From: Gemmatimonadales bacterium
GTDB lineage: Bacteria > Gemmatimonadota > Gemmatimonadetes > Longimicrobiales > Gaopeijiaceae
Length of the DNA: 64,000 nucleotides
Direction: 5' to 3'
Assembly: GCA_050485865.1 (NCBI GenBank)
Contig: JBJHCE010000003.1
Span: 1,506 to 65,505 of the forward strand
The translations under genes were made by a program, and so were the position numbers. Shown piece by piece: positions 16,841-34,623 of this stretch. The number at the start of each line of letters is the position of its first letter. Position 1 is the first letter of the stretch. Below the pieces are notes generated by a model. It did not search any database. It had not been told where the DNA came from and worked only from the letters and a program-made list of their open reading frames with translations.

Positions 16841-16853
16841 TCACCCTACCCTT
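16841..16853 (-). promoter_or_regulatory. Shared 13-mer AAGGGTAGGGTGA (minus strand) containing a TANNNT-type hexamer, upstream of the PKS operon
   Basis: An identical 13-mer recurs at 47318-47330 in the same orientation and at a similar distance (41 versus 47 nt) from a minus-strand start codon. Confidence 0.3.
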
Positions 16854-18713: not shown

Positions 18714-18720
18714 ATCCCCC

Positions 18721-19347
18721 CTAGATCAGGTAGACGATGGTGAAGAGGACGATCCAGACCAGGTCCACGAAGTGCCAGTAGAGACCCATGGCCTCGACGC
18801 CTCCAAGGCGTTTCGAGGTGAAGTCGCCGCGGCGGGCCCTCAGGTAGATCCATACGAGGCAGAGGACCCCGATGGATACGTGGAGCCCGTGGAACCCGGT
18901 CATCAGGTAGAAGGTCGAGCCGTAGAGGGGCCCACCCGCGGCGGCGAAGGCGGCGGCGTTCGGGACGAAGCCGTCGTGGACCAGGTGGATGTACTCGTAG
19001 ACCTGCACGCCCACGAAGAAGCTTCCCAGGAGGATCGTGGCGAGGAGCCACCGCTGGAGCCCCTTCTGGTCGTCGTGCTCGATGGCGGCGAAGGCCTTCA
19101 CCATCGTGACCGAGGAGCAGATCAGGATGAAGGTGTTGAAGGCGGTGAGGGGGACGTTCAGCACCTCGCCGGGGGCGGCGAAGTGGTCCGGGTGGGCAAA
19201 GCGCAGGATGATGTACGCCCCGATCAGCGAGGTGAAGAACATCACCTCCGAGAGGAGGAACACCCACATTCCGAGCTTCGCGTTGTACATGTCGAGGCCC
19301 CGTTCGGGGCGGCGGCCCCCGATCGGGAGGACGGCGGCGTGGCTCAT
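18721..19347 (-). CDS. ctaE: Cytochrome c oxidase subunit III
   Basis: LGMWVFLLSEVMFFTSLIGAY, YLMTGFHGLHVSIGV and YWHFVDLVWIVLF. ATG 19347 overlaps the CoxI stop (ATGA). Confidence 0.9.
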   Translation of the reverse strand: MSHAAVLPIGGRRPERGLDMYNAKLGMWVFLLSEVMFFTSLIGAYIILRFAHPDHFAAPGEVLNVPLTAFNTFILICSSVTMVKAFAAIEHDDQKGLQRWLLATILLGSFFVGVQVYEYIHLVHDGFVPNAAAFAAAGGPLYGSTFYLMTGFHGLHVSIGVLCLVWIYLRARRGDFTSKRLGGVEAMGLYWHFVDLVWIVLFTIVYLI

Positions 19348-21179
19348 GGCGCACCTCCGGGGGCTCCGGCGGGGGCCGGTTCGGGTGGGGGCGGGGGTGG
19401 GCCGCCCGATGCGGGTCCCGGCGGGCCCTCGCGGACGGCCTCCGGGGGCTCGTCCTGGGGGAAGAAGTCCAGGGCGCGGCCGGGCACGCTGTACTCGTAC
19501 GGCCCGCGGTGGACGAGGGGCCAGGTGGGGAAGTTTCCGTGCGGCGGAGGCGAGGGCACCGTCCACTCCAGGGAGTTCGCCCGCCAGGGGTTCGCCTCGG
19601 CCTTCTTCCCCCACCACATCGACAGGAGGAAGTTCGCCGCGAAGATGAGCTGCACGGCGAAGAGGGCGAAGACCGCGTTCGAAATGAAGACGTTCGTTCC
19701 CTGCAGGGGAGCGAGGAAGTCGTACTGGGTCGTGTCGTAGAGGCGGCGCATCATCCCCTGGAGCCCGAGCGAGTGCATCGGGAAGAACACCAGGTTGTAG
19801 AGGACGAAGGTGGCGAAGAAATGCACGTATCCCCAGGTCCGGTTCATCATCCGCCCGAACATCTTCGGGTACCAGTAGATGATCCCGGCGAAGATCGCGA
19901 AGAGGCTCCCGCCGAAAAGGACGTAGTGGATGTGCGCGACGATGAAGTACGTGTCGTGGATGTGGATGTCCACGGGGCTCGACGCCATGAAAATCCCCGA
20001 GAGTCCCCCGATGATGAAGAGGGACACGAAGGCCGCCGCGTGGAGGAAGGGGACGTGGAAATGGATGCTCCCCTTCCAGAGGGTGCCGAGCCAGTTGAAC
20101 ACCTTGATCGCCGAGGGGACCGCGATCACGAGCGTCGTCACCATGAAGGTGGTGCCGAGCATCGGGTTCATCCCGCTCATGAACATGTGGTGTCCCCACA
20201 CGATCCAGCCGAGGAAGGCAATGGCGATGATCGCGAGCACCATGGCGTGGTAGCCGAAGATCGGCTTCCGGGCACCGTTTGCGAGGACCTCCGAGACGAT
20301 CCCGAAGGCCGGGAGGATCAGGATGTAGACCTCCGGGTGGCCGAAGAACCAGAAGAGGTGCTGCCAGAGCAGGGGCTCACCCCCGTGCTCCGGAAGGAAG
20401 AAGGTGGTCCCGAGGGTCTGGTCCGTGAGGAGCATGATGAGCGCCCCCGCCAGGATGGGCATGGCGAGGAGCGCCAGAATCGCGGTGACGAAGAGGGCCC
20501 AGACGGTGAGAGGGAGCCGGAACCAGGTCATTCCCGGGGCACGCATGCTCACGACCGTGGTGATGTAGTTCACCGCTCCCGTGATCGAGCTGAAGCCCAG
20601 GATGAAGAGGGACAGGAGCCAGAGCTGCTGCCCAAGGTAGACCCCGGTGTACTCCCCCGATGCCGAGAGGGGGGCGTAGGCGGTCCATCCGGCACCCGCC
20701 GCTCCGCCCTCCACCAGGAAGCTCGCGAGCATGATGAATCCTGCCGGTACCGCAAGCCAGAACGAGAGCGCGTTCAGCTTCGGGAAGGCCATGTCCGGCG
20801 CCCCGATCTGGAGCGGGATCAGGAGGTTCCCGAAGACCCCCACCAGGAGGGGCATGATCGCGAAGAAGATCATGAAGGTCCCGTGCATGGTCACGAGACT
20901 GTTGTAGAACTCGGGGAGGATGATGCCGCCGGGCGCCATCGTGTCGGGGAGCCCGCCTCCTCCCGGAAGCGGCTGTCCGGGAAAGGCCAGCTGCCACCGC
21001 ATGATCACCGCCAGGAGCCCGCCCAGGAGGAGGAATACGAGGCTCATGACCAGGAACTGCTTCGCGATCATCTTGTGATCGGTGGAGAAGATGTAGGTCC
21101 GGATGAAGCCCGGCTCGTGGTGCCCTTCTCCGGCGAACCCCCCGATGTACCAGTCGGAGGCGGGTTTCGTGGCGCTCAT
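19344..21179 (-). CDS. ctaD: Cytochrome c oxidase subunit I (A-family haem-copper oxidase)
   Basis: STDHKMIAKQF, WFFGHPEVYILILPAFG (CuB His/Tyr region), GHHMF, and HDTYFIVAHIHYVLFGG (haem a/a3 His). It has a proline-rich C-terminal tail. ATG 21179 overlaps the CoxII stop. Confidence 0.95.
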   Translation of the reverse strand: MSATKPASDWYIGGFAGEGHHEPGFIRTYIFSTDHKMIAKQFLVMSLVFLLLGGLLAVIMRWQLAFPGQPLPGGGGLPDTMAPGGIILPEFYNSLVTMHGTFMIFFAIMPLLVGVFGNLLIPLQIGAPDMAFPKLNALSFWLAVPAGFIMLASFLVEGGAAGAGWTAYAPLSASGEYTGVYLGQQLWLLSLFILGFSSITGAVNYITTVVSMRAPGMTWFRLPLTVWALFVTAILALLAMPILAGALIMLLTDQTLGTTFFLPEHGGEPLLWQHLFWFFGHPEVYILILPAFGIVSEVLANGARKPIFGYHAMVLAIIAIAFLGWIVWGHHMFMSGMNPMLGTTFMVTTLVIAVPSAIKVFNWLGTLWKGSIHFHVPFLHAAAFVSLFIIGGLSGIFMASSPVDIHIHDTYFIVAHIHYVLFGGSLFAIFAGIIYWYPKMFGRMMNRTWGYVHFFATFVLYNLVFFPMHSLGLQGMMRRLYDTTQYDFLAPLQGTNVFISNAVFALFAVQLIFAANFLLSMWWGKKAEANPWRANSLEWTVPSPPPHGNFPTWPLVHRGPYEYSVPGRALDFFPQDEPPEAVREGPPGPASGGPPPPPPEPAPAGAPGGAP

Positions 21180-21913
21180 CGGCCTTCCTCGGCGTCGGGT
21201 TCGGGTGCGGGTTCGGAAGGCGCCTGGGCGCGCTGCCCACGGGCCTCCTCGCGGGCTGCGATCCGCTCCGCCTCCCATGCGGCGAAGTCGGCCTCGGACA
21301 GGGCGATCACCCGGCCGTCCATCCGGAAGTGTCCGACCCCGCAGAGTTCGGCGCACCCGAGGGAGTAGTCGCCCGCTTCGGTGACCTCGAACCAGATCGG
21401 GATCGTCATTCCGGGGACCGCGTCCTGTTTCACCCGGAAGGCGGGAACGAAGAAGGAGTGGATCACGTCGGCCGCGGTGAGGTGCACGACGACGGGGCGG
21501 TTCACCGGCACGTGGACCCGGTTCAGGAGGGTGAAGTCGGCATCGGTCCCGAACACCCCGTCACCTCCGGCGTAGCGCGCCTCCCATTCGAACTGCCGGG
21601 CCTCCACGTGGATCTCGTAGGCCCCGTCGGGAAAGCGGGCCGGGTCCTTCACCTCGTCCCAGACGCTCTTGCTCATGAGGCCGAGGGCCACGACGATCAC
21701 GAAGGGAACCGCGGTCCAGGCGATCTCGGCCTTCGTGCTCCCGTGGATGTAGGCCGCCGGCACCCCCTCGCGTCTCCTGTAGCGGAAGAGGAACCAGAAG
21801 AGGAGAAACTGGGTCAGGAGGAACACGACCCCGGTGATCACGAGGATCAGGTAGTACAGCCGGTCGATGTCGGCGGCGTAGGTGGTCACCGCCGTGGGAA
21901 GGGTCCAGTCCAT
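21176..21913 (-). CDS. ctaC: Cytochrome c oxidase subunit II (CuA; no fused cytochrome c domain)
   Basis: Two N-terminal TM helices. CuA ligands are in DVIHSFFVPAFRVKQD and CAELCGVGHFRM. There is no CxxCH anywhere in the protein. Confidence 0.9.
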   Translation of the reverse strand: MDWTLPTAVTTYAADIDRLYYLILVITGVVFLLTQFLLFWFLFRYRRREGVPAAYIHGSTKAEIAWTAVPFVIVVALGLMSKSVWDEVKDPARFPDGAYEIHVEARQFEWEARYAGGDGVFGTDADFTLLNRVHVPVNRPVVVHLTAADVIHSFFVPAFRVKQDAVPGMTIPIWFEVTEAGDYSLGCAELCGVGHFRMDGRVIALSEADFAAWEAERIAAREEARGQRAQAPSEPAPEPDAEEGR

Positions 21914-21917
21914 CCGG

Positions 21918-22691
21918 TTACGCTCCGGCCCGGAAGGTGAAGGAAACCGAGGCCGTCTCGCCGGTGGTCACCGTGACCCGGGCTTCCTGCGTGCCCAGGT
22001 CCGGGTGCCAGGCTTCGAGGAGGTACTCTCCGGGGGGGAGCCGGGCCAGGTTGAAGGTTCCCGCCTCTCCGGTCACCGCGTGGTAGGGGTGGGGGAGGAT
22101 GCCCAGGTAGGCGCCCATCCACCCGTGAACGTCGCAGCGCAGCGGGATCATCACCTCCGGGAGGGGGAAGGTCCGATCCGTGTCCATGTTGACCGGCTGG
22201 CTCACGTTGAAGCCCCGGTTCGTGCTCGGCGTGGCGTTGATGTTGTGCATGAGTCCGTCGGAGTTCCGGAGCGTCACCGTCTGGTTCGTCATCGCTCCCG
22301 CTACCCGTGGGACGTACCGGCACGCCACCTGGTCGATGAGGACGGCCTCGGCGGGGACGGGGAATTCCATTCCCTCGAGCCCCTCCTTCACGTAGACGAA
22401 GACGTCGGCCAGGTGACCGCCACGGACCTTCACGTTCTCCCGGACGGGGGGTTCGTCGTAGCGCTCGAAGCAGGCGCGCTCGCTCTCCATGTCGATGGGC
22501 TCGGGCGCAGGCGGAGTCCCCTCGAACATGACCATGCCGGAGACCGAACCGGCGGTGGCCACGTCGAAGGGCATCTCGGTGACCTGCCGGGCTGCGGGCG
22601 CGGCGTCGTCCCCGCCTCCGCAGGCGGCGACTCCGAGGGCCAGGGCGAGGGCGGCGAAGGGGAGCGTGCAGCGGTGGGTCAGGGTGTTCAT
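21918..22691 (-). CDS. Cupredoxin-like lipoprotein with C-terminal carboxypeptidase-regulatory-like beta-sandwich
   Basis: Lipobox LALGVAAC. A type-1 copper-like ligand set is present: H in DGLMHNINA plus C-x2-H-x2-M in RCDVHGWM. The C-terminal GTFNLARLPPGEYLLEAW is CarboxypepD_reg-like. Confidence 0.6.
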   Translation of the reverse strand: MNTLTHRCTLPFAALALALGVAACGGGDDAAPAARQVTEMPFDVATAGSVSGMVMFEGTPPAPEPIDMESERACFERYDEPPVRENVKVRGGHLADVFVYVKEGLEGMEFPVPAEAVLIDQVACRYVPRVAGAMTNQTVTLRNSDGLMHNINATPSTNRGFNVSQPVNMDTDRTFPLPEVMIPLRCDVHGWMGAYLGILPHPYHAVTGEAGTFNLARLPPGEYLLEAWHPDLGTQEARVTVTTGETASVSFTFRAGA

Positions 22692-24313
22692 GGGTCCTCC
22701 GGGGTCGGAGTTGGGGTGATGCGTTCACGTCGCTGGGCCCGGGCCACCACGAGGAGGCCGAGCCCGCCGGTGAGAACCATCGCGAGGAGGGGAGCCACGA
22801 AGACCGTGGGCGGGGTCTCGGGCTCCAGGTGGATGAAGAACCAGGAGCTGATGGAGCCCCGGGTCCCGTCCTCCCCGTTGTCACCGTCCCAGGCCTGGAA
22901 GGCGATGGGGATCGAGACCCCCTCCACGAAGGTGAGATCGGCGTCGGGATCCGCGGGCTCGAGGGGGCGACGAAGGAGGAGCTCCCATCGGCCGTCATCC
23001 CAGCGGGCCTCGGCAGAGATCCCGGCGCCGGGAATGTCCTGGACGTCGCGGACCCCCCGGGCCCGGGCCCGGACGGCGGTCCCGGGGCGATCGCTGGACC
23101 ACTGCCAGAGGAGGACCGGACTGCGGGCATCGCCCTTCAGGAAGTACGGCCGGTCCATACCCCGGGGGAGTTCAAGGGGGAGCTGAACGGTGATCCGGTC
23201 CGGCCGGGGGCCGGGCTCCGGGGGTTCGCCGTCGTGGGGCTCCATGACCTCGAGGACCCGGGCCTGGAAGTCTGCCCAGAGCGGGTCCGGGCTCCGGGAC
23301 CGATCGTGCCAGGCCAGGTGGAGAACGAGCTCGGCCCCGTCGTGGAAACCCCGGACCTCCACCGCGTTGATCGAGGGATCGAACCAGCGGGGCGCCACGA
23401 TGATCTGGGCCACGAGGGGAATGTGGAACGCCTCGGCCTCGCCCCATCGCGGATCGTCGAGCCCGGTGGGGAGAGTTCCGCCGTCGAGGCGGGGAATCCG
23501 GATCACCTCCCGGATCCGGGGCTCCCGCTCCGGCGAGAGGCTCCGGACGTAGTGGGCAAGGCTCCAGAGTTCGTCGGCGGTGACCACCCCCGCGTCCACG
23601 AGATCGGCGGACGAGGGCATCGGGGTCCCGTCGAGCCCGGTGAGGATCCGCCGGTGGATGTCCTCCACCGAACCCCCTCCGTCGAACCTCCAGTTCCTGG
23701 TGAGGTCAGCGGCGCGAATCGGATAACCCCAGTCATCTTCCAGGGTGGGCGCACTCGACCCGGCACCCCGCCCGGAGTCACCGTGGCACTGCCAGCACTC
23801 GATTCGCTGGAAGACCTCCCGACCCTCGGCGATCCGCTCGGCACTCGCCCTGGGCGCCCGACCGAAGGGGAGGGGGTCGGGCTGCCCGAAGGTCTCGAAC
23901 CCCGGGTAGAAGGTCTTCAGGTACGCCACGAGGGCGTCCCGGTCCCGGCGGGAGAGGTGACGCTCCCACCCGGGCATGGAGGTCCCGGGCATCCCCTTGT
24001 CGATGACGCGCAGGATGTCTGCGTCGGTGGGAAGCTCCCCCCCGGCGGTGGTCCGGACCTGGTAGACCCCCCGGGTGAAGTCCCTCGGGCGGGGAAGCAT
24101 GGTGCCCGCAGCCGGGCCCAGACCGTCGCCCTCGGCCCCGTGGCACGAGGCACACCATCGGTCGTAGAGCTCCCGCCCCCGGTCCAGGTCCTGGGCCTCG
24201 GCCCCTCCCGCCCCGGCGGCGGCCGCGGCCAGGAACCCCGCGCAGGCCAGGCGGCGGCCGGCGGCCGCAGGGATCCGCCACCTGGAAATGGACCCGCCCC
24301 TCCGCATCTCCAT
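22688..24313 (-). CDS. Di-haem cytochrome c fused to an EB_dh-type (ethylbenzene dehydrogenase gamma-like) haem-b domain, C-terminal TM anchor
   Basis: Two CxxCH motifs (CASCH, CWQCH). The distal domain has LHLAWHD...VQLP...GM..PYF...LWQW...W.LLLRRPL...IAFQAWDGDNGE..G..SISSW. TM VFVAPLLAMVLTGGLGLLVVA. The ATG shares one nucleotide with the upstream stop (TGATG at 24311-24315). Confidence 0.7.
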   Translation of the reverse strand: MEMRRGGSISRWRIPAAAGRRLACAGFLAAAAAGAGGAEAQDLDRGRELYDRWCASCHGAEGDGLGPAAGTMLPRPRDFTRGVYQVRTTAGGELPTDADILRVIDKGMPGTSMPGWERHLSRRDRDALVAYLKTFYPGFETFGQPDPLPFGRAPRASAERIAEGREVFQRIECWQCHGDSGRGAGSSAPTLEDDWGYPIRAADLTRNWRFDGGGSVEDIHRRILTGLDGTPMPSSADLVDAGVVTADELWSLAHYVRSLSPEREPRIREVIRIPRLDGGTLPTGLDDPRWGEAEAFHIPLVAQIIVAPRWFDPSINAVEVRGFHDGAELVLHLAWHDRSRSPDPLWADFQARVLEVMEPHDGEPPEPGPRPDRITVQLPLELPRGMDRPYFLKGDARSPVLLWQWSSDRPGTAVRARARGVRDVQDIPGAGISAEARWDDGRWELLLRRPLEPADPDADLTFVEGVSIPIAFQAWDGDNGEDGTRGSISSWFFIHLEPETPPTVFVAPLLAMVLTGGLGLLVVARAQRRERITPTPTPEDP

Positions 24314-25113
24314 CAGTGCTCCTCCCAGGTACGGGGCGAGAGCCCTGCCTGGCGGTAGAGGAAGAGGGTCACCGCCCAGATCTCGTCGGCGGTCATGAAG
24401 TCCTCCCAGGCGGGCATGGCCGAGTTCCAGGGGGCACCCTCCCGGGGAAGGCCGGCCCCTCCCTTCGCGATCCGCCAGAAGACGTAACTCTCGGTGAGCT
24501 GGGCGATCGTTCCTCCGCCGCGGAGGGGGAGGGGCGCGGGGTTGAAGCCGTGGGCGTAGTGACCCTGCCCGTCCAGGTAGTCGCCGTGGCAGGGCATGCA
24601 GTTCCGCGTGTAGAGGGCGAGCCCCTCGGCGTAGGCCTCGTCCTCCCGCCCCGAGCCGCGTATGGGGTTCTCGAGCCCGTCCAGGCGGATCGTCTCGCCG
24701 CGGAAGGTGATCTGGGTGGGAGGCGCGGGGTGGACGGACCTGAGCCCCGCGGGGGCCGAGACCTTGGGGCGGACCGTGTCGTAGGTCATGAAGCCCACGA
24801 GGAGGGGGAGGGCCACCAGGACCGCGAGGCGCACCCGACGCCGCTCCGGAAGGATCAGGGTCTCCCGGATGGGGCGCTTGAAGGCCTTCCACCGGTCCTC
24901 GTTGTCACTCACCCAGACGAGCACCCCGAGGAGGACGGAAAGCATGTACTGGATCACCACGCTCCGGGGGACCGGTGCGCTCGAAACCCCGACGAGGGGG
25001 GGGAGGTACGGGATCCCCCAGCGGACCAGGGCGTAGGCGAGGAGAAGGACCGCTGCGCCCTGGGCGAAGGGGGTCCGGGGCCAGAGGCGGAAGCGCCGCG
25101 CCGGGGCGTTCAC
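24313..25113 (-). CDS. Membrane-anchored mono-haem cytochrome c (three N-terminal TM helices)
   Basis: Single CMPCH, with the distal Met candidate in NSAMPAW. The GTG start overlaps the upstream stop (GTGA at 25110-25113). Confidence 0.8.
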   Translation of the reverse strand: MNAPARRFRLWPRTPFAQGAAVLLLAYALVRWGIPYLPPLVGVSSAPVPRSVVIQYMLSVLLGVLVWVSDNEDRWKAFKRPIRETLILPERRRVRLAVLVALPLLVGFMTYDTVRPKVSAPAGLRSVHPAPPTQITFRGETIRLDGLENPIRGSGREDEAYAEGLALYTRNCMPCHGDYLDGQGHYAHGFNPAPLPLRGGGTIAQLTESYVFWRIAKGGAGLPREGAPWNSAMPAWEDFMTADEIWAVTLFLYRQAGLSPRTWEEH

Positions 25114-25907: not shown

Positions 25908-27716
25908 TCAGGCCTCCCGGGGGTTCGGATGGAGGGGCGCGGTCGAGGGGGCCGCCGCGGGCTGGGGCTTCACGATCATCCCCCCGATCCAGAAGACGAA
26001 GGAGATCATTCCGAGGAAGATCAGGACGCAGGCGCTGATCACGATGGCCGCGTATCCGAGCGCCGGGGTCGCCGCGTGGGGCGAGGTGTCGCGCATCACC
26101 TCCCAGATGTGCCAGTGCTGGCGAATCCCGCTTCGGGCGAACCCCATGAGCCCCATGAGCCAGGTGAAGGTCACGACCAGCACGAAGAGGGCGTACTGGG
26201 CGCGCTCGGGCATCTCTCCCCAGCGGATCGCCCCCCGGGATTCGGCCTTCCGGGTCAGGAGGAGGTCCAGGACGACCACGGCCACGATGGAGCCCAGCAC
26301 CCAGAGCACCTGGTAGACCGAGAATCCGATCCGGACAATGGCCTCGACGAAGTAGCCGTAGACCCCGTAGAAGAGGACGACGGCAGCACAGATCGCGAGC
26401 ACGATCCCCTGGGCGATCGTCCCCTCCCGGGCCCACGACACGGTGGGAATCTTGTTCGCCCGGCGGTACATCAGGAAGGACAGGAAGGTGGTGAGGATCA
26501 TGAGGTTCACCGCCGTGTTCTTGGCACTCATGACCCCGAGCACCCCCAGGAAGGGGTGGTGCGTCCCCCCCATGGCGGCGAGCTCCTCCCGGTCCGCGAT
26601 CATGGAGTGGGGGGTGGCCCACACGATGAAGCCCACCACGAGGACGGCGAGCATGTACTTCGTGTACGGAGCGAACCGCTCTCCTCCGGGGATGCGACCG
26701 AGGCCGATCCAGAGGTAGTAGTTGCCCGCGAGGAAGAGGATCCCGATCAGGAAGGCCTGCACGATCCAGAGCCAGCTCATGAAGCCGCCCATCATCGTGA
26801 CGCCCATCTGCTGGTTGTACTCGTAGATCTCCCGCCCCAGCCAGTAGCCCGCGAAGGGGAGCACGAGGAAGACCGCGATGGCGATGAGGTTCCCCACGTA
26901 CGCCATCCAGTCGTAGTGGGCGCGCTCCTCCGGGGTCTTCGCCTTGAGGAATCGGTACGCCGCGTAGGCCGCCACCACCGCCCCACCGAACACGGCGTTC
27001 GCGATGAGCCGGTGGATGTTGATGGGCATCCAGGTGGCGTTCGCGAAGGCGCTCCAGAAGAGCACCTCCCGGGGGGAGGTGTCGGGGGTCACGTACCCCG
27101 GGGGGCTCATCATGTAGGTGAGCCAGGAGTTCGCGATGAACATCACGATCGTGCCCCAGATGTTCAGGAGGATCCCGAGCCCCCAGTGTCCGATCTTGGC
27201 CCGACCGGCCTTCCACCGGTCCCACGTGTAGTAGTAGGTGTAGAGGGTGGCCGTCTCGAAGAAGAAGAGACCGGCGTAGAAGTACATGGAGTAGCCGAAG
27301 ATCTCGGCCAGGTATCCCCAGAGCGTGGGGTAGAGGGTCACGAGGAGGAAGAGGAGGAGCCCGCCCCAGAGGGCCGTGGCGCTGTAGGCCACGAGGAGGA
27401 GGCGGGTGAATTCCCGGGCGAGCCGGTCGTACTTCTCGTCCTTCCCCCAGATCGCGATCGCCTCGGCGATCACCGCGAACATCGGCACCCCGAGCACGAA
27501 GGCGGCGAACATGAGGTGCACCTGCGCCGCCACCCACACGGCGATCCGGCTCCCCACCAGGGGAAAGTCCCGCCCGTACTCCGCCACCCGGTACTGGTAC
27601 TGGAAGCCCTGGGCGGCGAGGGGCTCGGCAAGGATCACCACGAGGGCCACCCCGGCGGCGAGGGCCGCGAGCGCCCACGCGATCCGGGCCTTCCCGCCCT
27701 GGCTCCGGCCCGTCAT
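25908..27716 (-). CDS. CydA-like protein (cytochrome bd subunit I superfamily), extended to about 13-14 hydrophobic segments, no CydB partner
   Basis: Aligns to the E. coli CydA N-terminal half: AAQVHLMF (His19 context), FFFETATL (FFLESTF), TWDRW (GWDR), IGHWGL (His126 context), ANSWLTYMMSP (ANGWMQNP) and NIHRLIANAVFGG (His186 context). ATG 27716 overlaps the radical-SAM stop. Confidence 0.8.
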   Translation of the reverse strand: MTGRSQGGKARIAWALAALAAGVALVVILAEPLAAQGFQYQYRVAEYGRDFPLVGSRIAVWVAAQVHLMFAAFVLGVPMFAVIAEAIAIWGKDEKYDRLAREFTRLLLVAYSATALWGGLLLFLLVTLYPTLWGYLAEIFGYSMYFYAGLFFFETATLYTYYYTWDRWKAGRAKIGHWGLGILLNIWGTIVMFIANSWLTYMMSPPGYVTPDTSPREVLFWSAFANATWMPINIHRLIANAVFGGAVVAAYAAYRFLKAKTPEERAHYDWMAYVGNLIAIAVFLVLPFAGYWLGREIYEYNQQMGVTMMGGFMSWLWIVQAFLIGILFLAGNYYLWIGLGRIPGGERFAPYTKYMLAVLVVGFIVWATPHSMIADREELAAMGGTHHPFLGVLGVMSAKNTAVNLMILTTFLSFLMYRRANKIPTVSWAREGTIAQGIVLAICAAVVLFYGVYGYFVEAIVRIGFSVYQVLWVLGSIVAVVVLDLLLTRKAESRGAIRWGEMPERAQYALFVLVVTFTWLMGLMGFARSGIRQHWHIWEVMRDTSPHAATPALGYAAIVISACVLIFLGMISFVFWIGGMIVKPQPAAAPSTAPLHPNPREA

Positions 27717-29053
27717 GCCTTCCCTCCCCGCCCGAGGAAGAAGGGGAGCCGCTTCGAGAAGTCCACCGGCATCTCCTCCCGGACCCGGGCCATCAGCGCC
27801 TCGTCCACGACCGCCACCCCCCGGTCCCGGGCAAAGCGCTCCACCCGGTCCACCACCACCCCCCGGACGAAGCTCGGAATCCGCTCCACCCGGGCCCGGG
27901 CGCCTTCGGTCCAGGGGAGTGCCGGCTCGGGGATCGAGGCCCCGTAGGTGACCGACGCGCGCGGGCGGACAAGGGGCTCGTCCCCGTCCGGCTCGTACGC
28001 GCACGAGAGGTCCGGCCCGAGGAGGTCGCCGGTCTCGGCAAAGGCCCGGGCGCGACACCCCCCGCACACCTCCCGGTACGCGCACCGCCCGCACTTTCCG
28101 CCGGGCGTTCCTTCACGAAGGGCCTGGAACACCGCGGAAGTGCGCCAGATCTCGCCGAAGGAGGCCTCCGCCAGGTCCCCCGCCTCCACCGGGGAGTAGG
28201 GACAGGGCGTCACCTTCCCCTCGGGAGTGATGCGGCAGTACTGGAGCCCGCAGGGACACCGGGTCCGGTAGTTCAGGAGGGGGGAGTCCGGCTCCCCGGC
28301 GTGGGCGAGGCGCATGAGCTGCGGCTGGCACTTCGAGCGAACCAGCATCCGGCCCCGGAAGCGGGCCTCGAGGGCCAGGAGCTCCTCCAGGACCTCCTCG
28401 TTCTCCGCGGGGGAGAGCCCCTGCATCCCCGACCCCCGCCCGGTGGGAACGAGGAAATAGAGGTTGAAGGCCACGGCACCCATTTCGGCGGCCCAGGCCA
28501 CGAGTCCCGGGAGCTCGTCCCGGTTTCCCCGGGTGAGGCTCGTCTGCACGATGAAGTCGAGGCCGTGGCGCCCGAGTCGCTCCACCGCGGCAAGGGTATC
28601 GGAGAGGGCGCCCGAGCCGTGGCGAAAGCGGTCGTGGTACGCGGGGCGGAGCGAGTCCACGCTCACCGCCACGCCCTGCACCCCCGCTTCCATGAGCGAC
28701 CGGATCCGGGTGTCCGTGAGACGCGTTCCGTTCGTACCCACCACCACCGTGGCGCCCCCTTCCGTGGCCCGGGAGGCGAGAAGCTCCAGGTCGTCGCGAA
28801 GGAGGGGCTCCCCGCCGGAGAGGATCAGCATCGGCGCGGGGCTCACCTCCAGGATCTCTCCGAGGATGCGGAGGCATCGGTCCGTCGGGAGCTCGTCGGC
28901 CGCGGCGTGCCAGGACCCGGCCGCGATGTAGCAGTGGGCGCACGCCAGGTTGCAACGCTTCGTCAGGTTCCAGGCCACCACGTGGGGAACGGGCGGGGCA
29001 GGCTCCGACACCGGCGTGGACGGCGCTTCGTCGAGCGCCCGGGCGAGGCTCAC
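27713..29053 (-). CDS. Radical SAM/SPASM enzyme of the NirJ/AhbC/AhbD (tetrapyrrole side-chain) type with a C-terminal PCP_red-like domain
   Basis: CNLACAHCY (CxxxCxxC), SGGEPLL, NLYFLVPTGRG, and a Cys-rich tail CPCGLQYC...PCPY...GKCGRCAYREVCGGCRARA. The C terminus is LPWTEGARARVERIPSFVRGVVVDRVERFARDRG. The GTG start overlaps the upstream stop (GTGA at 29050-29053). Confidence 0.8.
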   Translation of the reverse strand: MSLARALDEAPSTPVSEPAPPVPHVVAWNLTKRCNLACAHCYIAAGSWHAAADELPTDRCLRILGEILEVSPAPMLILSGGEPLLRDDLELLASRATEGGATVVVGTNGTRLTDTRIRSLMEAGVQGVAVSVDSLRPAYHDRFRHGSGALSDTLAAVERLGRHGLDFIVQTSLTRGNRDELPGLVAWAAEMGAVAFNLYFLVPTGRGSGMQGLSPAENEEVLEELLALEARFRGRMLVRSKCQPQLMRLAHAGEPDSPLLNYRTRCPCGLQYCRITPEGKVTPCPYSPVEAGDLAEASFGEIWRTSAVFQALREGTPGGKCGRCAYREVCGGCRARAFAETGDLLGPDLSCAYEPDGDEPLVRPRASVTYGASIPEPALPWTEGARARVERIPSFVRGVVVDRVERFARDRGVAVVDEALMARVREEMPVDFSKRLPFFLGRGGKA

Positions 29054-31035
29054 GCCTCCTCCTCCATGAATCGTTCCACCGCCGCCCTTGCCTCGGCGGG
29101 TGTCGCCGTCTTCATGTCCACCGGGCACTTCTCGACCTGGGCCTCGACATCGCGGATCGGACACCGGGTGACCCCCTGGGCCTTCGCCTCCTCGATGAAT
29201 TTCCTCATCTCGGGCGAGAGCCCGTCCACCCCCTCGGCCGCGGCCTTGAGCTGCTTCGTCTGGAGCTCGCGGAACATGACGAGCATGGTGTCCATGTCGA
29301 ACTCGTCGGCCTCGATCATGGCCTGCTTGTTCTCGTCCATGACCCGGGTCGTGACCCGCCAGAGGTCGTGTTCCTTCGCGAAGCGCTCCACGGTGTTGCG
29401 GGCCAGGGGGCGCGCGATCAGGGGCACGGCCCGAAGGCGTTCGAAGGCTTCCGCGGTCCAGACCACCGGGTCGGTGGCGGTACGCTCCCGGGACTGGCTA
29501 TGCCCCGTGTAGGGGCACGCCACGGTCACCGTGGGGACCTCGGGCTCGGGGTCCGCGTCCACCCCTTCCACCACGGTCCGCCGCATCGCCTCCTCCGCCT
29601 TCACCTCGGCCAGGGCAAGCTCTTCGGCGGTCCCGATCCCCATGATCATCTGCATGTGGGTGGGAAGGAGCTTCCGGATCGCCTCGTCGAGGCGGTCGCC
29701 GGTCACGGTGGGAAGCGCATGTCCCCCGTTCCCGTACTCCTCGAGGACGAACTCCTCCACCGCCTTCCGGGCGATCCCCAGGGCGAAGGGCGGCACCCGG
29801 AGGATCCGCACCTCGGCGTCGGGGGCCCACTCGAGCCCCTGTTCCCCGTCTTCCTCGATCCAGGGGATCTCGTCGGGGCGGACGTCGGTGGTCCCCACGA
29901 GGAGCACGTTCGCAGGCGTGAGGCGGCAGAGGTTCTCGGCCTGGGAACCCAGATCGGTGCCGTCGATCCGGTGCCCCCCGTGCCGCGCCATCACGACGAG
30001 CGAGGGGTCGAGCTCCTCCACCCACTGGAGGATGCACTGGAAGGGCTTCCCGATCAGGATCTGGGTCTCCACCTCCACGTCGGGGAACTCGGAGGCCATG
30101 ACCTGCGCCCGCTTGAGGTTCGCCTGGCAGAGCTTCAGGAGCCCCTTGTCGATGATGTTGTTGTGAAGGGCTTCCTGCTCCTCGAACTTGAAGACCTTCG
30201 CGGCCTGCGCCGAGAGCACGTCCTTGATGTTGCCGAAGACGACGTGGTGATACTCCACGTCGAAGGCGGAGCAGACGTGGAGCTTCGCCCCGAACTCCCG
30301 GGCGAGTTCGAGGGCCACCCGCATCGCCTTGTACGCGTAGGAGGAGCCGTCCACGCATACGATCCAGGATCCGCCCTCGAGCGGTCGGTCGTTCCGGACG
30401 ATCAGGGTGTCCCGTTCGACCTTCCGGATGACCCGGGCGGTGACGCCCCCGAGCTGTGAGAGGGGCTGGAGGCCGATTCCGTGGGCGCCGATGCAGAGGA
30501 GGTCGTATTCACGACCGCTCTCGCCCGCGAGCTTCTCGTCCTGCTCCTCGTCCTCGGCCACGATCCGTCCGTCCGCCCCGAGGCGAACGTCGCTCCGGAC
30601 CGTCGTACCCCCGTCGTACTTGTCGGCGATGTTGGGATCGAAGCCGATGAGACTGGGAAGGCGCCCCGCTCCCCGGTTCGCCTCACGGATGATCTCCTCG
30701 TAGTTGATTCCCTCGAGGAGCTGCCGTGCAAGGGGGACTCCGGCCTCCCGGCACCGCCGTTCCGTCTGGTCCAGGAAGGAGTCCGAGATGAGCTGGAGCC
30801 CCTTCTCGATCAGCTTGTCGTGGACCTTCCGCTGCCGCCGGATCTCTTCCGGGGTCTGGAACTGTGCAGGGAGACCGGTTTCGAGCTGCCGGAACCGGAC
30901 GTCGTGAAGCCGGGCGGCGTAGACGTGGTTTCCGGTGATCCGGCCGTCGGACCTGCGGCAGAGCTCCACCGCACGGTTCACGGCCCAGCTGGAATGGTCG
31001 GAGTTGTCGACCGGAACGAGGACTTCGCGGTACAT
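29050..31035 (-). CDS. Tandem universal-stress-protein (USP) domains fused to two PCP_red-like domains
   Basis: USP-1 is MYREVLVPVDNSDHS...LLCIGAHG...VIRKVERDTLIV. USP-2 is WIVCVDGSSYAYKA...VVMARHGGH...GSQAENLCRLTPANVLLV. These are followed by EWAPDAEVRILRVPPFALGIARKAVEEFVLEE and VVWTAEAFERLRAVPLIARPLARNTVERFAKEHD. A GAGG Shine-Dalgarno precedes ATG 31035. Confidence 0.8.
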   Translation of the reverse strand: MYREVLVPVDNSDHSSWAVNRAVELCRRSDGRITGNHVYAARLHDVRFRQLETGLPAQFQTPEEIRRQRKVHDKLIEKGLQLISDSFLDQTERRCREAGVPLARQLLEGINYEEIIREANRGAGRLPSLIGFDPNIADKYDGGTTVRSDVRLGADGRIVAEDEEQDEKLAGESGREYDLLCIGAHGIGLQPLSQLGGVTARVIRKVERDTLIVRNDRPLEGGSWIVCVDGSSYAYKAMRVALELAREFGAKLHVCSAFDVEYHHVVFGNIKDVLSAQAAKVFKFEEQEALHNNIIDKGLLKLCQANLKRAQVMASEFPDVEVETQILIGKPFQCILQWVEELDPSLVVMARHGGHRIDGTDLGSQAENLCRLTPANVLLVGTTDVRPDEIPWIEEDGEQGLEWAPDAEVRILRVPPFALGIARKAVEEFVLEEYGNGGHALPTVTGDRLDEAIRKLLPTHMQMIMGIGTAEELALAEVKAEEAMRRTVVEGVDADPEPEVPTVTVACPYTGHSQSRERTATDPVVWTAEAFERLRAVPLIARPLARNTVERFAKEHDLWRVTTRVMDENKQAMIEADEFDMDTMLVMFRELQTKQLKAAAEGVDGLSPEMRKFIEEAKAQGVTRCPIRDVEAQVEKCPVDMKTATPAEARAAVERFMEEEA

Positions 31036-31479: not shown

Positions 31480-32223
31480 TCATCCGCGGAGTCCCGCGAC
31501 CCGTCCCACGAGCCCTCGAGCCGCCAGGAGGGAGATCCCCGCCAGGAGCAGGGTGGAGAGTGCGGGGCCGAACCAGTGGACGAGGGCCGCCGCCCCTGGA
31601 ACGGTCCCGGTGGCGCCTGGCGGCCCGCTCGCCACCCGGAGGAGCTCCCGATGAAGGGGGCCGAAGGGAAGGAGCGCCTCGAACCGGGCTCCCCAGCCCC
31701 CGGCCTGCGCCGTGCGGAACACGCCGGACCCGTGGAGGAGGAAGAGGGTGGCCACCGCGGCGAAGAGGGCGCCCTCCGCCATGGACCGCGCGGCGGAGGC
31801 GACCCACAGTCCCACGAGGTTCGCCGCCGCGAGGGCAAGGGCGAGGGTCGCGGCAAGGACCAGGAAGTCGCGGGCTCCGCCACCCGACAGGGCCACGATC
31901 AGGATCACCGATGGCGAGAGCTGGACCAGGTCCACCCCCACCTGGGCCGCGGTCCGCTCGACCACGAACCGGCCCGGCGGAAGCCCGGTCATGACGACCC
32001 TGCCCAGGAAGCCCGATTCAGCATCCCGGAGCACCGGGATCGCGGAACCCATGGTTCCGAAGAGGACGAAGAGCACGGCGTAGACCGCTGCCGCGTGGAA
32101 CGCAGGTGCCGCACCGAGCGCCAGCGGAACCACGAGAAGAAGGGGCACGCCGACGTTCAGGGCGAAGAGGCGCTTCCGCCGAAGCGAAAGGCGCCACTCG
32201 AGCCGTGCCAGGGCGCCCCTCAC
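31480..32223 (-). CDS. ABC-2-type transporter permease
   Basis: About 6 hydrophobic helices. The GTG start overlaps the ATPase stop (GTGA at 32220-32223). Confidence 0.65.
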   Translation of the reverse strand: MRGALARLEWRLSLRRKRLFALNVGVPLLLVVPLALGAAPAFHAAAVYAVLFVLFGTMGSAIPVLRDAESGFLGRVVMTGLPPGRFVVERTAAQVGVDLVQLSPSVILIVALSGGGARDFLVLAATLALALAAANLVGLWVASAARSMAEGALFAAVATLFLLHGSGVFRTAQAGGWGARFEALLPFGPLHRELLRVASGPPGATGTVPGAAALVHWFGPALSTLLLAGISLLAARGLVGRVAGLRG

Positions 32224-33230
32224 GGTGCCCCTCCCCCCGCCCCGTGCCCGTCCTCCGTCGGATCCGGCGACCCACGGCCCGGCACCGGTCCGGTGACCCC
32301 GGTCATATCCTCCAGGACCGCCTCCAGCCCTGCCTCCCGGACCCGGACCTCGGCCACGGCGACCCCGGACTCGAGCAGCCGTGCCAGGAGTCCCGGGAGG
32401 ACGGTCTCGAGGGGAACGCCGCCGGGGTCGGTCCGGAACTCCAGGGATCCGTCGGCTCGCCTTTTCTCGAGGGTGACCCCGGGAAGGTCGATTCCGCGCT
32501 CCCACCCCGGCTCCTCCACCCCCTCGGCAAGGGTCACGAAGACCCGGGTGCGACCGTGCATCCTCTCGAGGAGTCCCGAAGGCGGTGCGTCCGCCAGGAC
32601 CCGCCCCCGGTGCAGGACCACGACCCGGTCGAACCCCGGTGCCAGTCGAGCCAGGTCATGCGTCGCCACCACGATCGCCGTCCCCGCCCCGGCTTCCTCC
32701 CGCGCCGCTTCCTCCAGGGCCGTCACCCCCGAGTGGTCGAGCCCTACCGTGGGCTCGTCCAGCACCAGGAGGCCCGCCGCGCTCCCGAAGGCCTCGGCAA
32801 GGACGAGGCGCCGCCGCATTCCGGAGGAGTACGACTCCACCGACCGGTCCGCCACATCGGACAGCCCGAAGGCGTCGATCCAGCGTTCGACGTGCCCCGG
32901 ACCTCTCCCCCGGAACGCCTGGAAGGCCCCGAGGTGCTCCCGCCCCGTGAGGGCGCCTGCGAAGACCGGTACGTCGGGAGCCATGGCGATCCGGCGGCGC
33001 AGCGCCGGGAGCTCGGAGCCTCGCGGCGGCCTGGACGCCCCGAACCACCGGATCTCCCCGCCCGTGGGCGAGAGCGCGGTGGCAAGAAGGCGGAGGAGGG
33101 TCGACTTCCCGGCGCCATTCACCCCGACCACGGCCACCCGTTCTCCCGCCGCCACCCCCAGATCGATCCCCTCCACCCCGGCCTCCCCCCCGGGCCACCG
33201 CAGCGCAAGGTCTCGGGCCTGGACGACCAC
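32220..33230 (-). CDS. ABC transporter ATP-binding protein (ABC-2/DrrA-like with C-terminal extension)
   Basis: Walker A GVNGAGKST, signature YSSGMRRRL, Walker B LLVLDEPTVGLD and H-loop ATHD. The GTG start abuts the upstream TAG stop. Confidence 0.9.
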   Translation of the reverse strand: MVVQARDLALRWPGGEAGVEGIDLGVAAGERVAVVGVNGAGKSTLLRLLATALSPTGGEIRWFGASRPPRGSELPALRRRIAMAPDVPVFAGALTGREHLGAFQAFRGRGPGHVERWIDAFGLSDVADRSVESYSSGMRRRLVLAEAFGSAAGLLVLDEPTVGLDHSGVTALEEAAREEAGAGTAIVVATHDLARLAPGFDRVVVLHRGRVLADAPPSGLLERMHGRTRVFVTLAEGVEEPGWERGIDLPGVTLEKRRADGSLEFRTDPGGVPLETVLPGLLARLLESGVAVAEVRVREAGLEAVLEDMTGVTGPVPGRGSPDPTEDGHGAGGGAP

Positions 33231-33677
33231 CTACATGCCTTCCAGGCCCAGGTCGGTCCGGGCCCGATCCATGACCTCCGGCGAGATCGTCCCGATCCCA
33301 TGCTCCCGGGCGTAGTCGGTGTAGATCCGCTTCACCATTCCGCGAACGAACCCCGGCACCCCCTGGAGGCGGAGCACCGCCTCCTCCGTCCAGATCACCG
33401 GGATCGGCGTCGTCGGAGCCGACGTGTCGACGAAGGCATCACTCCGCCCGCCATCGAGGGAGCCGCGCACCGTTTCGAAGGGCTGGGCAGGGACCTCCCT
33501 CCCGCCGACCTTCACCCCCATGGTGCTCACGAGCTGGGTCTCCATCGGGTTCGTGAGCAGCGCCATTTCCCTTGCACACCCGGGGCACCGGAAGAGGGTG
33601 GCCATCGTCCCGTCGCCGGGGAGGCGCCGCTCGGCGTAGGCCATGACCTGGTCGCAGGGGATGCAGAGGAATTTCAT
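33231..33677 (-). CDS. Zn-ribbon + PCP_red-like domain protein
   Basis: N-terminal CIPC...CPGC ribbon. The C-terminal domain is VIWTEEAVLRLQGVPGFVRGMVKRIYTDYAREHG. The ATG overlaps the Mrp stop (ATGA at 33674-33677). Confidence 0.7.
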   Translation of the reverse strand: MKFLCIPCDQVMAYAERRLPGDGTMATLFRCPGCAREMALLTNPMETQLVSTMGVKVGGREVPAQPFETVRGSLDGGRSDAFVDTSAPTTPIPVIWTEEAVLRLQGVPGFVRGMVKRIYTDYAREHGIGTISPEVMDRARTDLGLEGM

Positions 33678-34609
33678 GGTCCCTTCTCCTCGCCACCCGG
33701 CGCCGGGGGCGAGGCACCGACTCCAGGGTCCGTTCCTCCGTCGCCGGCCGCCCCCAGCGCGGCCAGGAGCTTCGCTGCAAGGCCCTCGAAGCGGGTCGAG
33801 TCCGGAGCCCCTGCATCGGTGCTGGAGCCGGCACCGGGGTCCAGGGGAATGGATGCCCAGAGGGGGAGGCCGTAGCGAAGGCGAAGGCCTTCTCCCCCTT
33901 CGCCGGGGAAGAGGGCGTGGATCTCCCCGCATCCGGGACAGCGGAACCCGTCCATGTTCGACACGAGTCCCGTGATCGGGACGCCCGCCTCGACCACGAG
34001 CCGGAGCGAGCGGGCCACGACCGCCTCGGAGAGCGTCCCCGGCGTCGTCACCACCACCGCGGCGTGAAGCCCGGGAACGAGCTCAAGGAGCCTTGCGATC
34101 TTGTCCGTTCCGGGCGGAACGTCCACGAGCAGCAGGTCCAGCTCGCCCCACGCCACGTCCCCCAGGAACTCACGGAGGGCCGAGGTCTCGACCGTGCTCT
34201 GCCACAGGTGCCCATGGCCCCCGGGTCCCCGCCAGCGAAGGGGAGCATCGTCCCCTCCCTGGAGAAGCTCCATCGAGATGACCCGGACCCCGGATGCGCC
34301 CGTGGCGGGCTCGATCCCGCCCGAGCCCTCCCCGAGCCTCGCCTCCCGTACCCCGAGCATCCGCGCCATGGAAGGGCCGTTCAGGTCCGCATCCACCACC
34401 CCCACCCGCTTCCCCGCCCCGCCAAGCGCCGACGCGAGTCCCGCGGTCACGAAGCTTTTCCCGACCCCCCCCTTCCCACTCACGATGGCCACGATCGCCC
34501 CGACCCGGGCGAGCCGGCCGGCCAGGCGGGCGTGCTGGTCCAGCACCTGCTCGAGGAGCCCGGAGCCGGTCTCGTGCTCCACCTCGTTGTACGTCCGGAA
34601 CGGGCGCAT
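33674..34609 (-). CDS. Mrp/NBP35/ApbC-family Fe-S cluster carrier ATPase
   Basis: Deviant Walker A SGKGGVGKS, DADLNGPS, and the CPGC cluster-bridging motif (FRCPGCGEIH). Confidence 0.9.
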   Translation of the reverse strand: MRPFRTYNEVEHETGSGLLEQVLDQHARLAGRLARVGAIVAIVSGKGGVGKSFVTAGLASALGGAGKRVGVVDADLNGPSMARMLGVREARLGEGSGGIEPATGASGVRVISMELLQGGDDAPLRWRGPGGHGHLWQSTVETSALREFLGDVAWGELDLLLVDVPPGTDKIARLLELVPGLHAAVVVTTPGTLSEAVVARSLRLVVEAGVPITGLVSNMDGFRCPGCGEIHALFPGEGGEGLRLRYGLPLWASIPLDPGAGSSTDAGAPDSTRFEGLAAKLLAALGAAGDGGTDPGVGASPPAPGGEEKGP

Positions 34610-34623
34610 CCGGAACCCCCGGG

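Follow-up and report, generated by a model that had tools for sequence, protein, structure and literature searches.

A gene cluster associated with nitrite oxidoreductase (NXR) is conserved in Kuenenia, Nitrospira, and Nitrospina (Lucker et al. 2013; PMC3578206). It encodes an alternative NxrC, a mono-haem and a di-haem cytochrome c, cupredoxin-like proteins, and a 'bd-like oxidase' with 14 transmembrane (TM) helices, the N-terminal half of which aligns to subunit I of cytochrome bd (CydA), with helices in place of the Q-loop and the quinol-binding residues all missing. The cluster is kept in strictly anaerobic anammox bacteria, and a role like that of alternative complex III (ACIII) was proposed there. 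The bd-like_3 cluster is within the 40 most transcribed genes of N. moscoviensis, and the Nitrospira cluster was proposed to interact with the quinone pool, with a suggested role in reverse electron flow (Mundinger et al. 2019; PMC6606698). The equivalent cassette of Ca. Manganitrophus was named terminal-oxidase complex TO_1 in the Manganitrophaceae paper. Murali et al. 2021 (bioRxiv 10.1101/2021.01.16.426971) formalised the OR-N family, listed OR-N in Gemmatimonadota, and described OR-N2 as 14-TM proteins, often with no second CydA, whose operons also carry genes for several cytochromes c and a homologue of EbdC; cytochrome c was suggested as the electron donor. We take OR-N2 to be the same as the Lucker 'bd-like oxidase', bd-like_3/4 of N. 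moscoviensis, and TO_1. In nitrite and manganese oxidisers, few respiratory genes are expressed more highly than those for these proteins, and two opposite roles, terminal oxidase and quinone-linked analogue of complex III, have been proposed since 2010-2013. Here a gene of this kind is described from a 64,000-nucleotide stretch of a Gemmatimonadales contig (JBJHCE010000003.1), referred to as the window. The gene lies at 25908-27716 on the minus strand, and its 602-aa CydA-like product is labelled ORN.

The ORN gene was found in one operon with genes for a haem-type radical-SAM enzyme, three cytochromes c, a predicted type-1 copper lipoprotein, and an aa3 cytochrome c oxidase, so that within a single operon the cytochrome cassette is flanked by a candidate set for cofactor maturation on one side and by a classical aa3 oxidase on the other. 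ORN fits OR-N2, a family already described and catalogued and never biochemically characterised. What is new here is the context, which is free of NXR, joined to aa3, and linked to a radical-SAM protein. The arrangement predicts electron flow from quinol through ORN, the cytochromes c, and a blue copper protein to aa3.

The ORN open reading frame runs from an ATG at 27716 to a stop at 25908, and an identical 602-aa product is present in an NCBI-derived protein collection, so the gene call matches an independent annotation. Read on the plus strand, the same interval gave no sensible protein. The G+C content of the window is about 72%. The sequence-only reading, made without database searches, had recognised a CydA-like N-terminal half with the contexts of His19, His126, and His186 and the FFxE and WDR blocks, and this was borne out by Pfam, hhalign, and phmmer. 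The Pfam model it had named as a check, Cyt_bd_oxida_I (PF01654), matched with E=7e-23 and 81 bits, well over the cut-off of 26.2, in a single stretch covering aa 56-577 of ORN and model positions 2-407 of 418; no NCBIfam model matched. An hhalign comparison of a 110-sequence family alignment with E. coli CydA paired ORN aa 54-262 with E. coli 6-213 (probability 88%, E=3e-6), which makes TM1-5 homologous. A tblastn search of the window with E. coli CydA, CydB, and CydX gave no match, ORN itself included, and therefore the homology is visible to profile methods alone. When the PDB was searched by sequence, with either ORN or the family profile, the only matches were to TM1-5 of two CydA chains. 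A Foldseek search of the PDB with the AlphaFold2 model returned CydA chains in all of the top ten places (E=1e-7 to 1e-4, TM-score 0.4-0.57) and no OR-N-type structure. There were 6,298 homologues at E<1e-5, the closest of which, from metagenome-assembled genomes (MAGs) of Gemmatimonadota/Longimicrobiales, were 72-92% identical over the full length, with 77% as the highest value against Longimicrobiales. ORN is a real, highly divergent relative of cytochrome bd subunit I.

The hhalign alignment equates H67 of ORN with E. coli H19, E85 with E74, Y147 with E99, E154 with E107, N196 with N148, and H235 with H186; the correspondence of H177 to H126 was seen solely in a phmmer alignment with the Geobacillus CydA structure. 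FFFE and WDR blocks are present. H67, the equivalent of an axial ligand of the active-site haem, is conserved in at least 90% of the family, and both equivalents of the b558 ligands are kept (H235 and M396/M309). The E99 position is occupied by an invariant tyrosine, Y147, and this residue, E154, H177, E85, N196, M309, M396, and H536 are further conserved positions in a family with many invariant polar residues within the membrane. A CxxCH motif scan of ORN found none, and its 13-14 helices set it apart from OR-C, the haem-c-fused bd-like proteins with about 8 TM helices.

The AlphaFold2 model of ORN, built from the family alignment, has a confident membrane core (pLDDT 82, pTM 0.83). It contains 14 long helices, one N-terminal helix and 13 TM helices, in agreement with the 13-14 hydrophobic segments first counted from the translation. 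The N-terminal helix lies within aa 1-36 and ends in an A-x-A site followed by Q. Because this site is conserved family-wide, the helix is probably a cleaved signal peptide, and so probably is the '14th TM helix' of the literature. About 14 residues (aa 295-308) join TM6 (...LPFAGYWLG) to TM7 (MGGFMSW...), close to the dozen given by the sequence-only reading, and a Q-loop between these helices is absent from both the sequence and the model. In place of the Q-loop, ORN has an inserted pair of helices (aa 310-367) and a conserved periplasmic loop of about 25 residues; the pair is assigned to the former Q-loop site because residue spacing equals that of the OR-N2 reference. A second inserted pair (aa 429-487) precedes the helix of the GRQPW motif and is missing in the 12-TM subfamily. 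Of the earlier claim that the protein continues for 4-5 extra hydrophobic segments, the four extra helices stand, and they are internal insertions rather than a C-terminal continuation.

The GRQPW motif had been reported missing from ORN. The literal motif is indeed absent, but a degenerate remnant, R532-Q-H-W535-H536, had been overlooked. It lies within A-R528-S529-G-I-R532-Q-H-W535-H536-I-W-E539-V-M-R-D543, and the ORN stretch ARSGIRQHWHIWEVMRD matches the E. coli CydA stretch AEYGRQPWAIGEVLPT motif for motif. R528, S529, R532, H536, and D543 are invariant or near-invariant in the family; the equivalent of E445 (E539) is not conserved across the wider family. Pairwise comparison of the C-terminal half with E. 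coli CydA scored 42 against 30 +/- 5.5 for shuffled sequences (15 of 300 shuffles were as high), and hhalign of this half gave noise. The link between RQHW and GRQPW is thus drawn from motif and family conservation, the full-length Pfam match, and the published OR-N2 positions, not from pairwise alignment. The combination that marks quinol oxidases (qOR), an intact GRQPW with E445 plus E99 and E107, was not found: of these glutamates E107 is kept as E154, and E99 is replaced by Y147.

Each position of the OR-N2 signature of Murali et al. 2021 (Supplementary Table 6) was found in ORN. H19 is H67, the tyrosine at E99 is Y147, E107 is E154, the two tyrosines at F114/F116 are Y161/Y163, H126 is H177, H186 is H235, the M/N pair at M393 is M396/N400, the serine is S529, and W441 is W535. 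In the OR-N2 reference TKS59798.1, which was compared by published positions and not by sequence alignment, spacings are equal or nearly equal: W535-H235 is 300, as is W569-H269, M396/N400 correspond to M430/N434, and S529 corresponds to S563. The window also contains the several cytochromes c and the EbdC homologue expected of an OR-N2 operon. The remark in the sequence-only reading that CydA-only relatives linked to cytochromes c are known from Nitrospira surveys therefore matches the literature (PMC3578206; Murali et al. 2021) and the Nitrospira protein P0389 described below. Its statement that no activity has been demonstrated for them also agrees with the literature searched, in which none was reported for any OR-N protein.

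Genes of the train that contains ORN are given here in minus-strand order.

34624-34869, minus strand: small [4Fe-4S] ferredoxin (Pfam Fer4_15, Fer4_13)
33674-34620, minus strand: Mrp/NUBPL-type P-loop Fe-S carrier ATPase (Pfam ParA (NUBPL), E=7e-61), start uncertain
33231-33932, minus strand: small PCP_red protein, start codon uncertain
31480-33230, minus strand: ABC-2 transporter, with the ATPase at 32220-33230 and the permease at about 31480-32200
29050-31035, minus strand: 661-aa protein with Usp domains and two PCP_red matches (Pfam)
27713-29053, minus strand: 446-aa radical SAM/SPASM protein of the NirJ/AhbD clade with a C-terminal PCP_red domain (Pfam Radical_SAM, SPASM, PCP_red); an identical product in the protein collection is P0390
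25908-27716, minus strand: ORN, 602 aa, CydA-like 'bd-like' protein of OR-N2 type, with a probable signal peptide and 13 TM helices
25110-25907, minus strand: membrane-anchored dihaem cytochrome c (CLACH and CVMCH motifs)
24313-25113, minus strand: monohaem cytochrome c with three TM helices (CMPCH motif)
22688-24313, minus strand: cycEB, a dihaem cytochrome c fused to an EB_dh domain (EbdC/NxrC-like, haem b) with a C-terminal TM anchor (Pfam Cytochrom_C in two stretches and EB_dh; NCBIfam DMSO_red_II_gam, E=2.5e-22)
21918-22691, minus strand: predicted type-1 (blue) copper cupredoxin lipoprotein followed by a CarboxypepD_reg beta-sandwich (ligand conservation, profile search)
21176-21913, minus strand: CoxB, subunit II of an aa3-type oxidase with a CuA site (NCBIfam CoxB, 165.5 bits against a cut-off of 147.7)
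18393-21179, minus strand: CoxA (about 19344-21179), CoxC (about 18721-19347), and a CoxD-like subunit IV (18393-18713), from translations; the orthologues in the related locus L001 carry COX1, COX3, and COX4_pro
17239-18195, minus strand: conserved polytopic membrane protein of 318 aa, with no Pfam or NCBIfam family

From the Usp-PCP_red gene to coxB, all of the junctions read overlap, abut, or leave a gap of 4 nt, and on this basis these genes are one operon. The Usp-PCP_red and radical-SAM genes overlap in GTGA, radical SAM and ORN in ATGA, the dihaem and monohaem cytochromes in GTGA, and cycEB and the copper lipoprotein in ATGA; ORN and the dihaem cytochrome meet at TGAATG, the monohaem cytochrome and cycEB at TGATG, and 4 nt separate the lipoprotein gene from coxB. 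The coupling to a radical-SAM gene upstream and three c-type cytochromes downstream had been noted before; beyond that, the train runs unbroken into the copper lipoprotein and coxBACD. A CxxCH scan of CoxB found no motif, and there is no fused cytochrome c domain.

The earlier statement that no cydB or cydX lies in the train holds for the window and for the related loci. Neither gene was detectable in the window by tblastn or similarity search, and twelve window genes fill every slot from Usp-PCP_red to coxD in related loci, leaving no slot for cydB. The polytopic protein at 17239-18195 was considered as a hidden CydB and ruled out, as it has no similarity. It looks internally duplicated. In many Gemmatimonadota loci its gene comes after coxD, in others it is placed differently, and its membership of the system is uncertain. 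In the scanned remainder of the window no bc1, ACIII, NXR, or cydB genes were found.

Analysis of the lipoprotein at 21918-22691 showed that H149, C186, H189, and M192, in an amicyanin-like C-x2-H-x2-M arrangement, were invariant in 53 orthologues, as were C74 and C124. A 26-orthologue profile matched the blue-copper protein 5fc9_A (E=9e-6) and amicyanins in the PDB. Pfam found only CarboxypepD_reg, in the C-terminal domain, and no cupredoxin even at E<=1; the AlphaFold2 single-sequence model has a pLDDT of 36, and the cupredoxin assignment is made at the sequence level. Because of the invariant ligand set and the profile match, the protein is assigned as a lipid-anchored type-1 copper protein. 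Its gene stays with the cassette in loci where cox is missing (L063, L065, and L077), which indicates that the copper protein belongs to the cassette.

A scan of one genome per species gave 80 related loci, and these were searched by tblastn with the window proteins. Counts include only loci with enough flanking sequence, which for CoxA meant at least 7 kb downstream. In Gemmatimonadota, the three cytochromes followed ORN in 41 of 41 loci, the copper lipoprotein was present in 40 of 41, CoxA lay downstream in all 39, and the radical-SAM-PCP_red and Usp-PCP_red genes lay upstream in all 46. ORN with the three cytochromes was also found in NC10, Methylomirabilota, Rokubacteria, Chloroflexota, Myxococcota, Rhodothermales, Fibrobacteria, and a deltaproteobacterium, and the cassette of ORN, three cytochromes, and copper lipoprotein recurs in about nine lineages; Thermoanaerobaculia loci were not long enough to display all three cytochromes. 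The cox genes also follow the cassette in Chloroflexota, Rokubacteria, and Methylomirabilota, and in Rhodothermales (L078, L079) they lie upstream of it in a different order. Since the association recurs in different gene orders, it suggests functional coupling between the cassette and cox.

Nitrospira sp. Kam-Ns4a encodes the closest Nitrospira relative examined, P0389, which is 46.7% identical to ORN, has all of the key residues, and stands at the head of the same cytochrome cassette. A few genes upstream of it are an ORN paralogue and a small PCP_red protein (L082 2825-3286), and the neighbouring 361-aa protein has no counterpart in the window. Neither cox nor a radical-SAM gene was found in the 10 kb around P0389. 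In a neighbor-joining tree that did not include labelled OR-N1, OR-N2, or NIDE0901 references, ORN fell among the cassette-type proteins encoded in NC10, Rokubacteria, Nitrospinae, Ca. Manganitrophaceae, and Nitrospira; E. coli CydA was distant, with a long branch in between.

Two related loci differ in their make-up. L063, a Myxococcota MAG, has two divergent cassettes, at 3379-9673 on the minus strand and 9851-16430 on the plus strand, each with a cupredoxin lipoprotein; one copy precedes a PCP_red protein, a Cache/HAMP histidine kinase is nearby, and there is no cox within 10 kb. In L035, a Gemmatimonadota MAG, the cassette is followed at 7521-10397 by a far more divergent oxidase (CoxB 30% and CoxA 47% identity), and there is no cupredoxin lipoprotein; it is the sole Gemmatimonadota locus of that kind.

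The radical-SAM protein directly upstream of ORN has a CX3CX2C motif and SPASM cysteines. Its best NCBIfam scores were 273.5 bits for NirJ2 and 272.7 bits for AhbD, both under the 500-bit equivalog cut-offs, so by these profiles it is a relative, and not a member, of the AhbD and NirJ equivalogs. Its nearest solved relatives are PqqE and SkfB. The PCP_red domain (PF08369) occurs in three window proteins, namely this enzyme, the Usp protein, and the small protein at 33231-33932. In the protochlorophyllide reductase subunit BchB, PCP_red forms the C-terminal domain and caps the tetrapyrrole pocket. The radical-SAM and Usp-PCP_red genes move with the cassette in six lineages: they are upstream of it in Gemmatimonadota and NC10, and downstream in Rhodothermales, Myxococcota, Fibrobacteria, and a deltaproteobacterium. 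Within 10 kb of the cassette they were not seen in Rokubacteria or Chloroflexota. The small PCP_red protein had a tblastn match in 59 of 84 loci, usually together with this pair.

Because of the PCP_red domains, the kinship to NirJ and AhbD, and the movement with ORN, we infer that these proteins are a dedicated system for modifying or inserting a tetrapyrrole in ORN. The enzyme is unlikely to be a housekeeping AhbD, given its score below the cut-off, the extra PCP_red domain, its varying positions beside ORN in six lineages, and the scarcity of cysG, which a Gemmatimonadota survey (PMC9426454) reports as annotated in 7% of genomes. A radical-SAM or Usp-PCP_red partner of the bd-like cassette was not mentioned in the literature searched. 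The ferredoxin, Mrp/NUBPL, and ABC-2 genes lie directly upstream of Usp-PCP_red, in the same order in L001, and may be part of a set for cofactor maturation or export; their conservation weakens outside a few loci (tblastn found Mrp in 7 loci and the ABC ATPase in 13). For the ABC-2 transporter, the suggested membership of the system follows from position.

Elsewhere in the window, an amino-acid permease fused to a C-terminal Usp domain is encoded at 40808-43213 on the minus strand, adjoined at 39183-40747 on the same strand by an ArsR-like regulator and an ACR3-like arsenite carrier, by the look of their translations alone. A type III polyketide synthase of the chalcone/stilbene synthase family (11037-12581), an FAD/BBE-type oxidase (15649-16845), a polyketide-cyclase-like protein (51124-51615), and a UbiE-like methyltransferase (56852-57769) might contribute to a pathway for alkylresorcinols or quinone-type lipids.

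The sequence-only reading had left two options for ORN, a cytochrome-c-linked reductase and a quinol:cytochrome c module, and these are the two standing hypotheses of the field. We lean, with rather less than even confidence, toward the second: that the ORN complex is a menaquinol:cytochrome c/cupredoxin oxidoreductase feeding aa3. ORN would be the membrane haem subunit of a five-protein complex with the three cytochromes c and the type-1 copper lipoprotein, co-transcribed with the aa3 oxidase and acting as an alternative complex III. Menaquinol would be oxidised at a remodelled site beside a b558-type haem held by H235 and M396 or M309, where the Q-loop would be replaced by two inserted helices and a periplasmic loop carrying T368-P369-H370, E378, H387, and K399. 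Electrons would then pass by way of five c haems, a b haem, and blue copper to CuA of the co-encoded aa3, and the radical SAM-PCP_red, Usp-PCP_red, and small PCP_red proteins would mature a tetrapyrrole cofactor for ORN. Paired terminal oxidases in one operon are unusual and adjacent genes for complexes III and IV are common, which favours this assignment. The co-encoded aa3 needs an external donor, as its CoxB has no haem c, and the cassette brings with it five c haems, one b haem, and a blue copper protein. Natively, the CydA fold serves as a quinol dehydrogenase, and ORN retains both equivalents of the b558 ligands, which lends further support. An ACIII-like role is favoured also by the presence of the same cassette in strictly anaerobic anammox bacteria (PMC3578206).

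The survey (PMC9426454) also favours such a role. By KEGG annotation of 326 genomes, petB was present in 23%, ACIII in less than 10%, and caa3-type oxidases in 74%, and the survey authors suspected a novel complex III in Gemmatimonadota. The arrangement in the window thus touches on the way in which cytochromes c are reduced in this phylum, where cytochrome c oxidases abound and annotated bc1 and ACIII are few. In supplementary file 4 of the survey, K00425 (cydA) was assigned in 173 of 326 genomes (53%) and K00426 (cydB) in 95 (29%). Because cydA is called so much oftener than cydB there, about a quarter of the surveyed genomes probably have an orphan bd-like gene that was counted as 'cytochrome bd oxidase'.

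Several observations weigh against a complex III analogue. The Q-loop quinol-binding residues of canonical CydA, K252 and E257, are gone in ORN, and the equivalents of the O2 site and proton path (H67, E154, H177, E85, and N196) are strongly conserved although a plain quinol:cytochrome c oxidoreductase could do without them. Complexes III of other types are known from Rhodothermales, NC10, and Nitrospira. The bc1 and ACIII figures quoted above come from KEGG annotation of MAGs, in which ACIII is probably undercounted, and the Ca. Manganitrophus TO_1 cassette was read as a terminal oxidase in the Manganitrophaceae paper. That conservation, together with H235, M396/M309, and the invariant Y147 at E99, favours proton-coupled chemistry at a buried haem and so fits a cytochrome c (or cupredoxin):O2 oxidoreductase, a possibility that we regard as real though on the unlikely side. 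ORN would in that case use tri-haem bd chemistry, with b558 fed by the c haems and blue copper and protons drawn from the cytoplasm through the retained CydA pathway, and would be a second, non-pumping, probably high-affinity terminal oxidase sharing carriers with aa3. Its structural relatives are solely CydA chains of bd oxidases, this is the usual reading for the bd-like proteins of Nitrospirales, whose members are mostly without haem-copper oxidases, and for TO_1, which is expressed at the 98th percentile, and Murali et al. 2021 suggest a cytochrome c donor for OR-N2. However, it would be unusual for one tightly coupled operon to encode two parallel terminal oxidases, strictly anaerobic anammox bacteria keep the cassette (PMC3578206), and E445 is not conserved across the wider family. 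No electron source for the cytochromes c would be encoded, in a phylum mostly without annotated bc1 or ACIII (PMC9426454), and O2 reduction was not reported as measured for any OR-N protein in the literature searched.

Roles other than these two have a small chance of being correct. One of them, which we consider improbable, is that ORN reduces NO or reactive oxygen or nitrogen species, or is a non-catalytic anchor or electron wire for periplasmic cytochromes. Canonical bd oxidases have side activities with H2O2 and NO, which speaks for such an oxidant, and hosts of the cassette respire very differently, as nitrite oxidisers, anammox bacteria, NC10, and heterotrophs. In work on nitrite oxidisers, NXR was proposed to be anchored by the alternative NxrC-type subunit (PMC6606698), but there are no NXR genes in the window and no specific link to N-oxide genes was seen, and the 72-92% identity over 600 residues in Gemmatimonadota and the invariant polar residues within the membrane exceed what an anchor needs. 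That ORN is a degenerate or misannotated CydA of an ordinary quinol oxidase, with cydB elsewhere in the genome, is effectively refuted. In the survey about 29% of Gemmatimonadota genomes do carry cydB (PMC9426454), but ORN lacks a Q-loop, contains four inserted helices and conserved motifs of its own, is set apart from E. coli CydA by a long branch, and has signature residues of OR-N2 and not of the qOR families, and its operon partners are constant across lineages and never include cydB.

The complex III analogue can be extended to a broader proposal, in which the cassette is a third, unrecognised type of quinol:cytochrome c (or cupredoxin) oxidoreductase built on a CydA scaffold, the 'missing complex III' of most Gemmatimonadota, running in reverse in nitrite oxidisers and anammox bacteria. 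We regard this extension as a real though rather unlikely possibility. As part of it, the ORN haem centre may need a non-standard tetrapyrrole made by the co-transcribed NirJ/AhbD-like radical SAM-PCP_red protein, aided by the other PCP_red proteins, and a second quinone site, working in the manner of a Q-cycle, could draw on the cytoplasmic proton path that is retained and on the second pair of haems.

The Gemmatimonadota version of the cassette is of interest because it is freed from the confounding context of NXR, and this context makes the question of bd-like protein function experimentally approachable. It also indicates that surveys equating K00425 or PF01654 with 'cytochrome bd oxidase' overcount quinol oxidases.

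Compared with canonical CydA (E. coli 6RKO, Geobacillus 5DOQ), ORN is alike in TM1-5, the b558 ligands, the His ligand of haem d/b595, and E107. It differs in having no Q-loop, quinol-binding residues, or CydB/CydX, a degenerate GRQPW, tyrosine at E99, four inserted helices, and cytochrome c and copper partners. With the OR-N2 or bd-like proteins it shares the approximately 14 helices, the lack of a Q-loop and CydB, the retention of H19, E107, H126, and H186, and the change of E99 to Tyr. Its cassette likewise resembles the Nitrospira, Nitrospina, and Kuenenia cluster in the mono-haem c, the di-haem c, the EbdC/NxrC-like fusion, and the cupredoxin-like protein. Unlike in the nitrite oxidisers, the host is a high-GC, heterotroph-type, Gemmatimonadota/Longimicrobiales-like organism, there are no NXR genes in the window, and, unlike in the described clusters, the cassette is in one operon with coxBACD and is preceded by radical SAM-PCP_red and Usp-PCP_red. 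The radical-SAM enzyme shares the CX3CX2C motif, the SPASM cysteines, and its best scores of about 273 bits with AhbD (haem b synthase) and NirJ (haem d1 biosynthesis). Where it differs is in its additional PCP_red domain and in a neighbourhood devoid of ahb and nir genes.

The position of the cassette beside oxidase genes is the slot used elsewhere by ACIII or qcr genes. Its five c haems, b haem, and blue copper resemble the output side of ACIII/auracyanin or b6f/plastocyanin. Like ACIII (ActABCDEF) with caa3 and auracyanin, it would be a multihaem-c membrane complex beside a haem-copper oxidase, with about six periplasmic-side haems and a lipid-anchored blue copper partner. The two are not homologous: ACIII uses the NrfD-like ActC/F for quinol and the Fe-S subunit ActB, whereas the membrane subunit in the window is a predicted haem-bearing CydA relative and there is no Fe-S subunit. 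In actinobacterial bcc-aa3 and archaeal SoxM-type operons, an anchored dihaem c (QcrC) or a blue copper protein (sulfocyanin) bridges the quinol module and aa3; the window operon is without a Rieske protein and cytochrome b, and its putative quinol subunit has instead the CydA fold.

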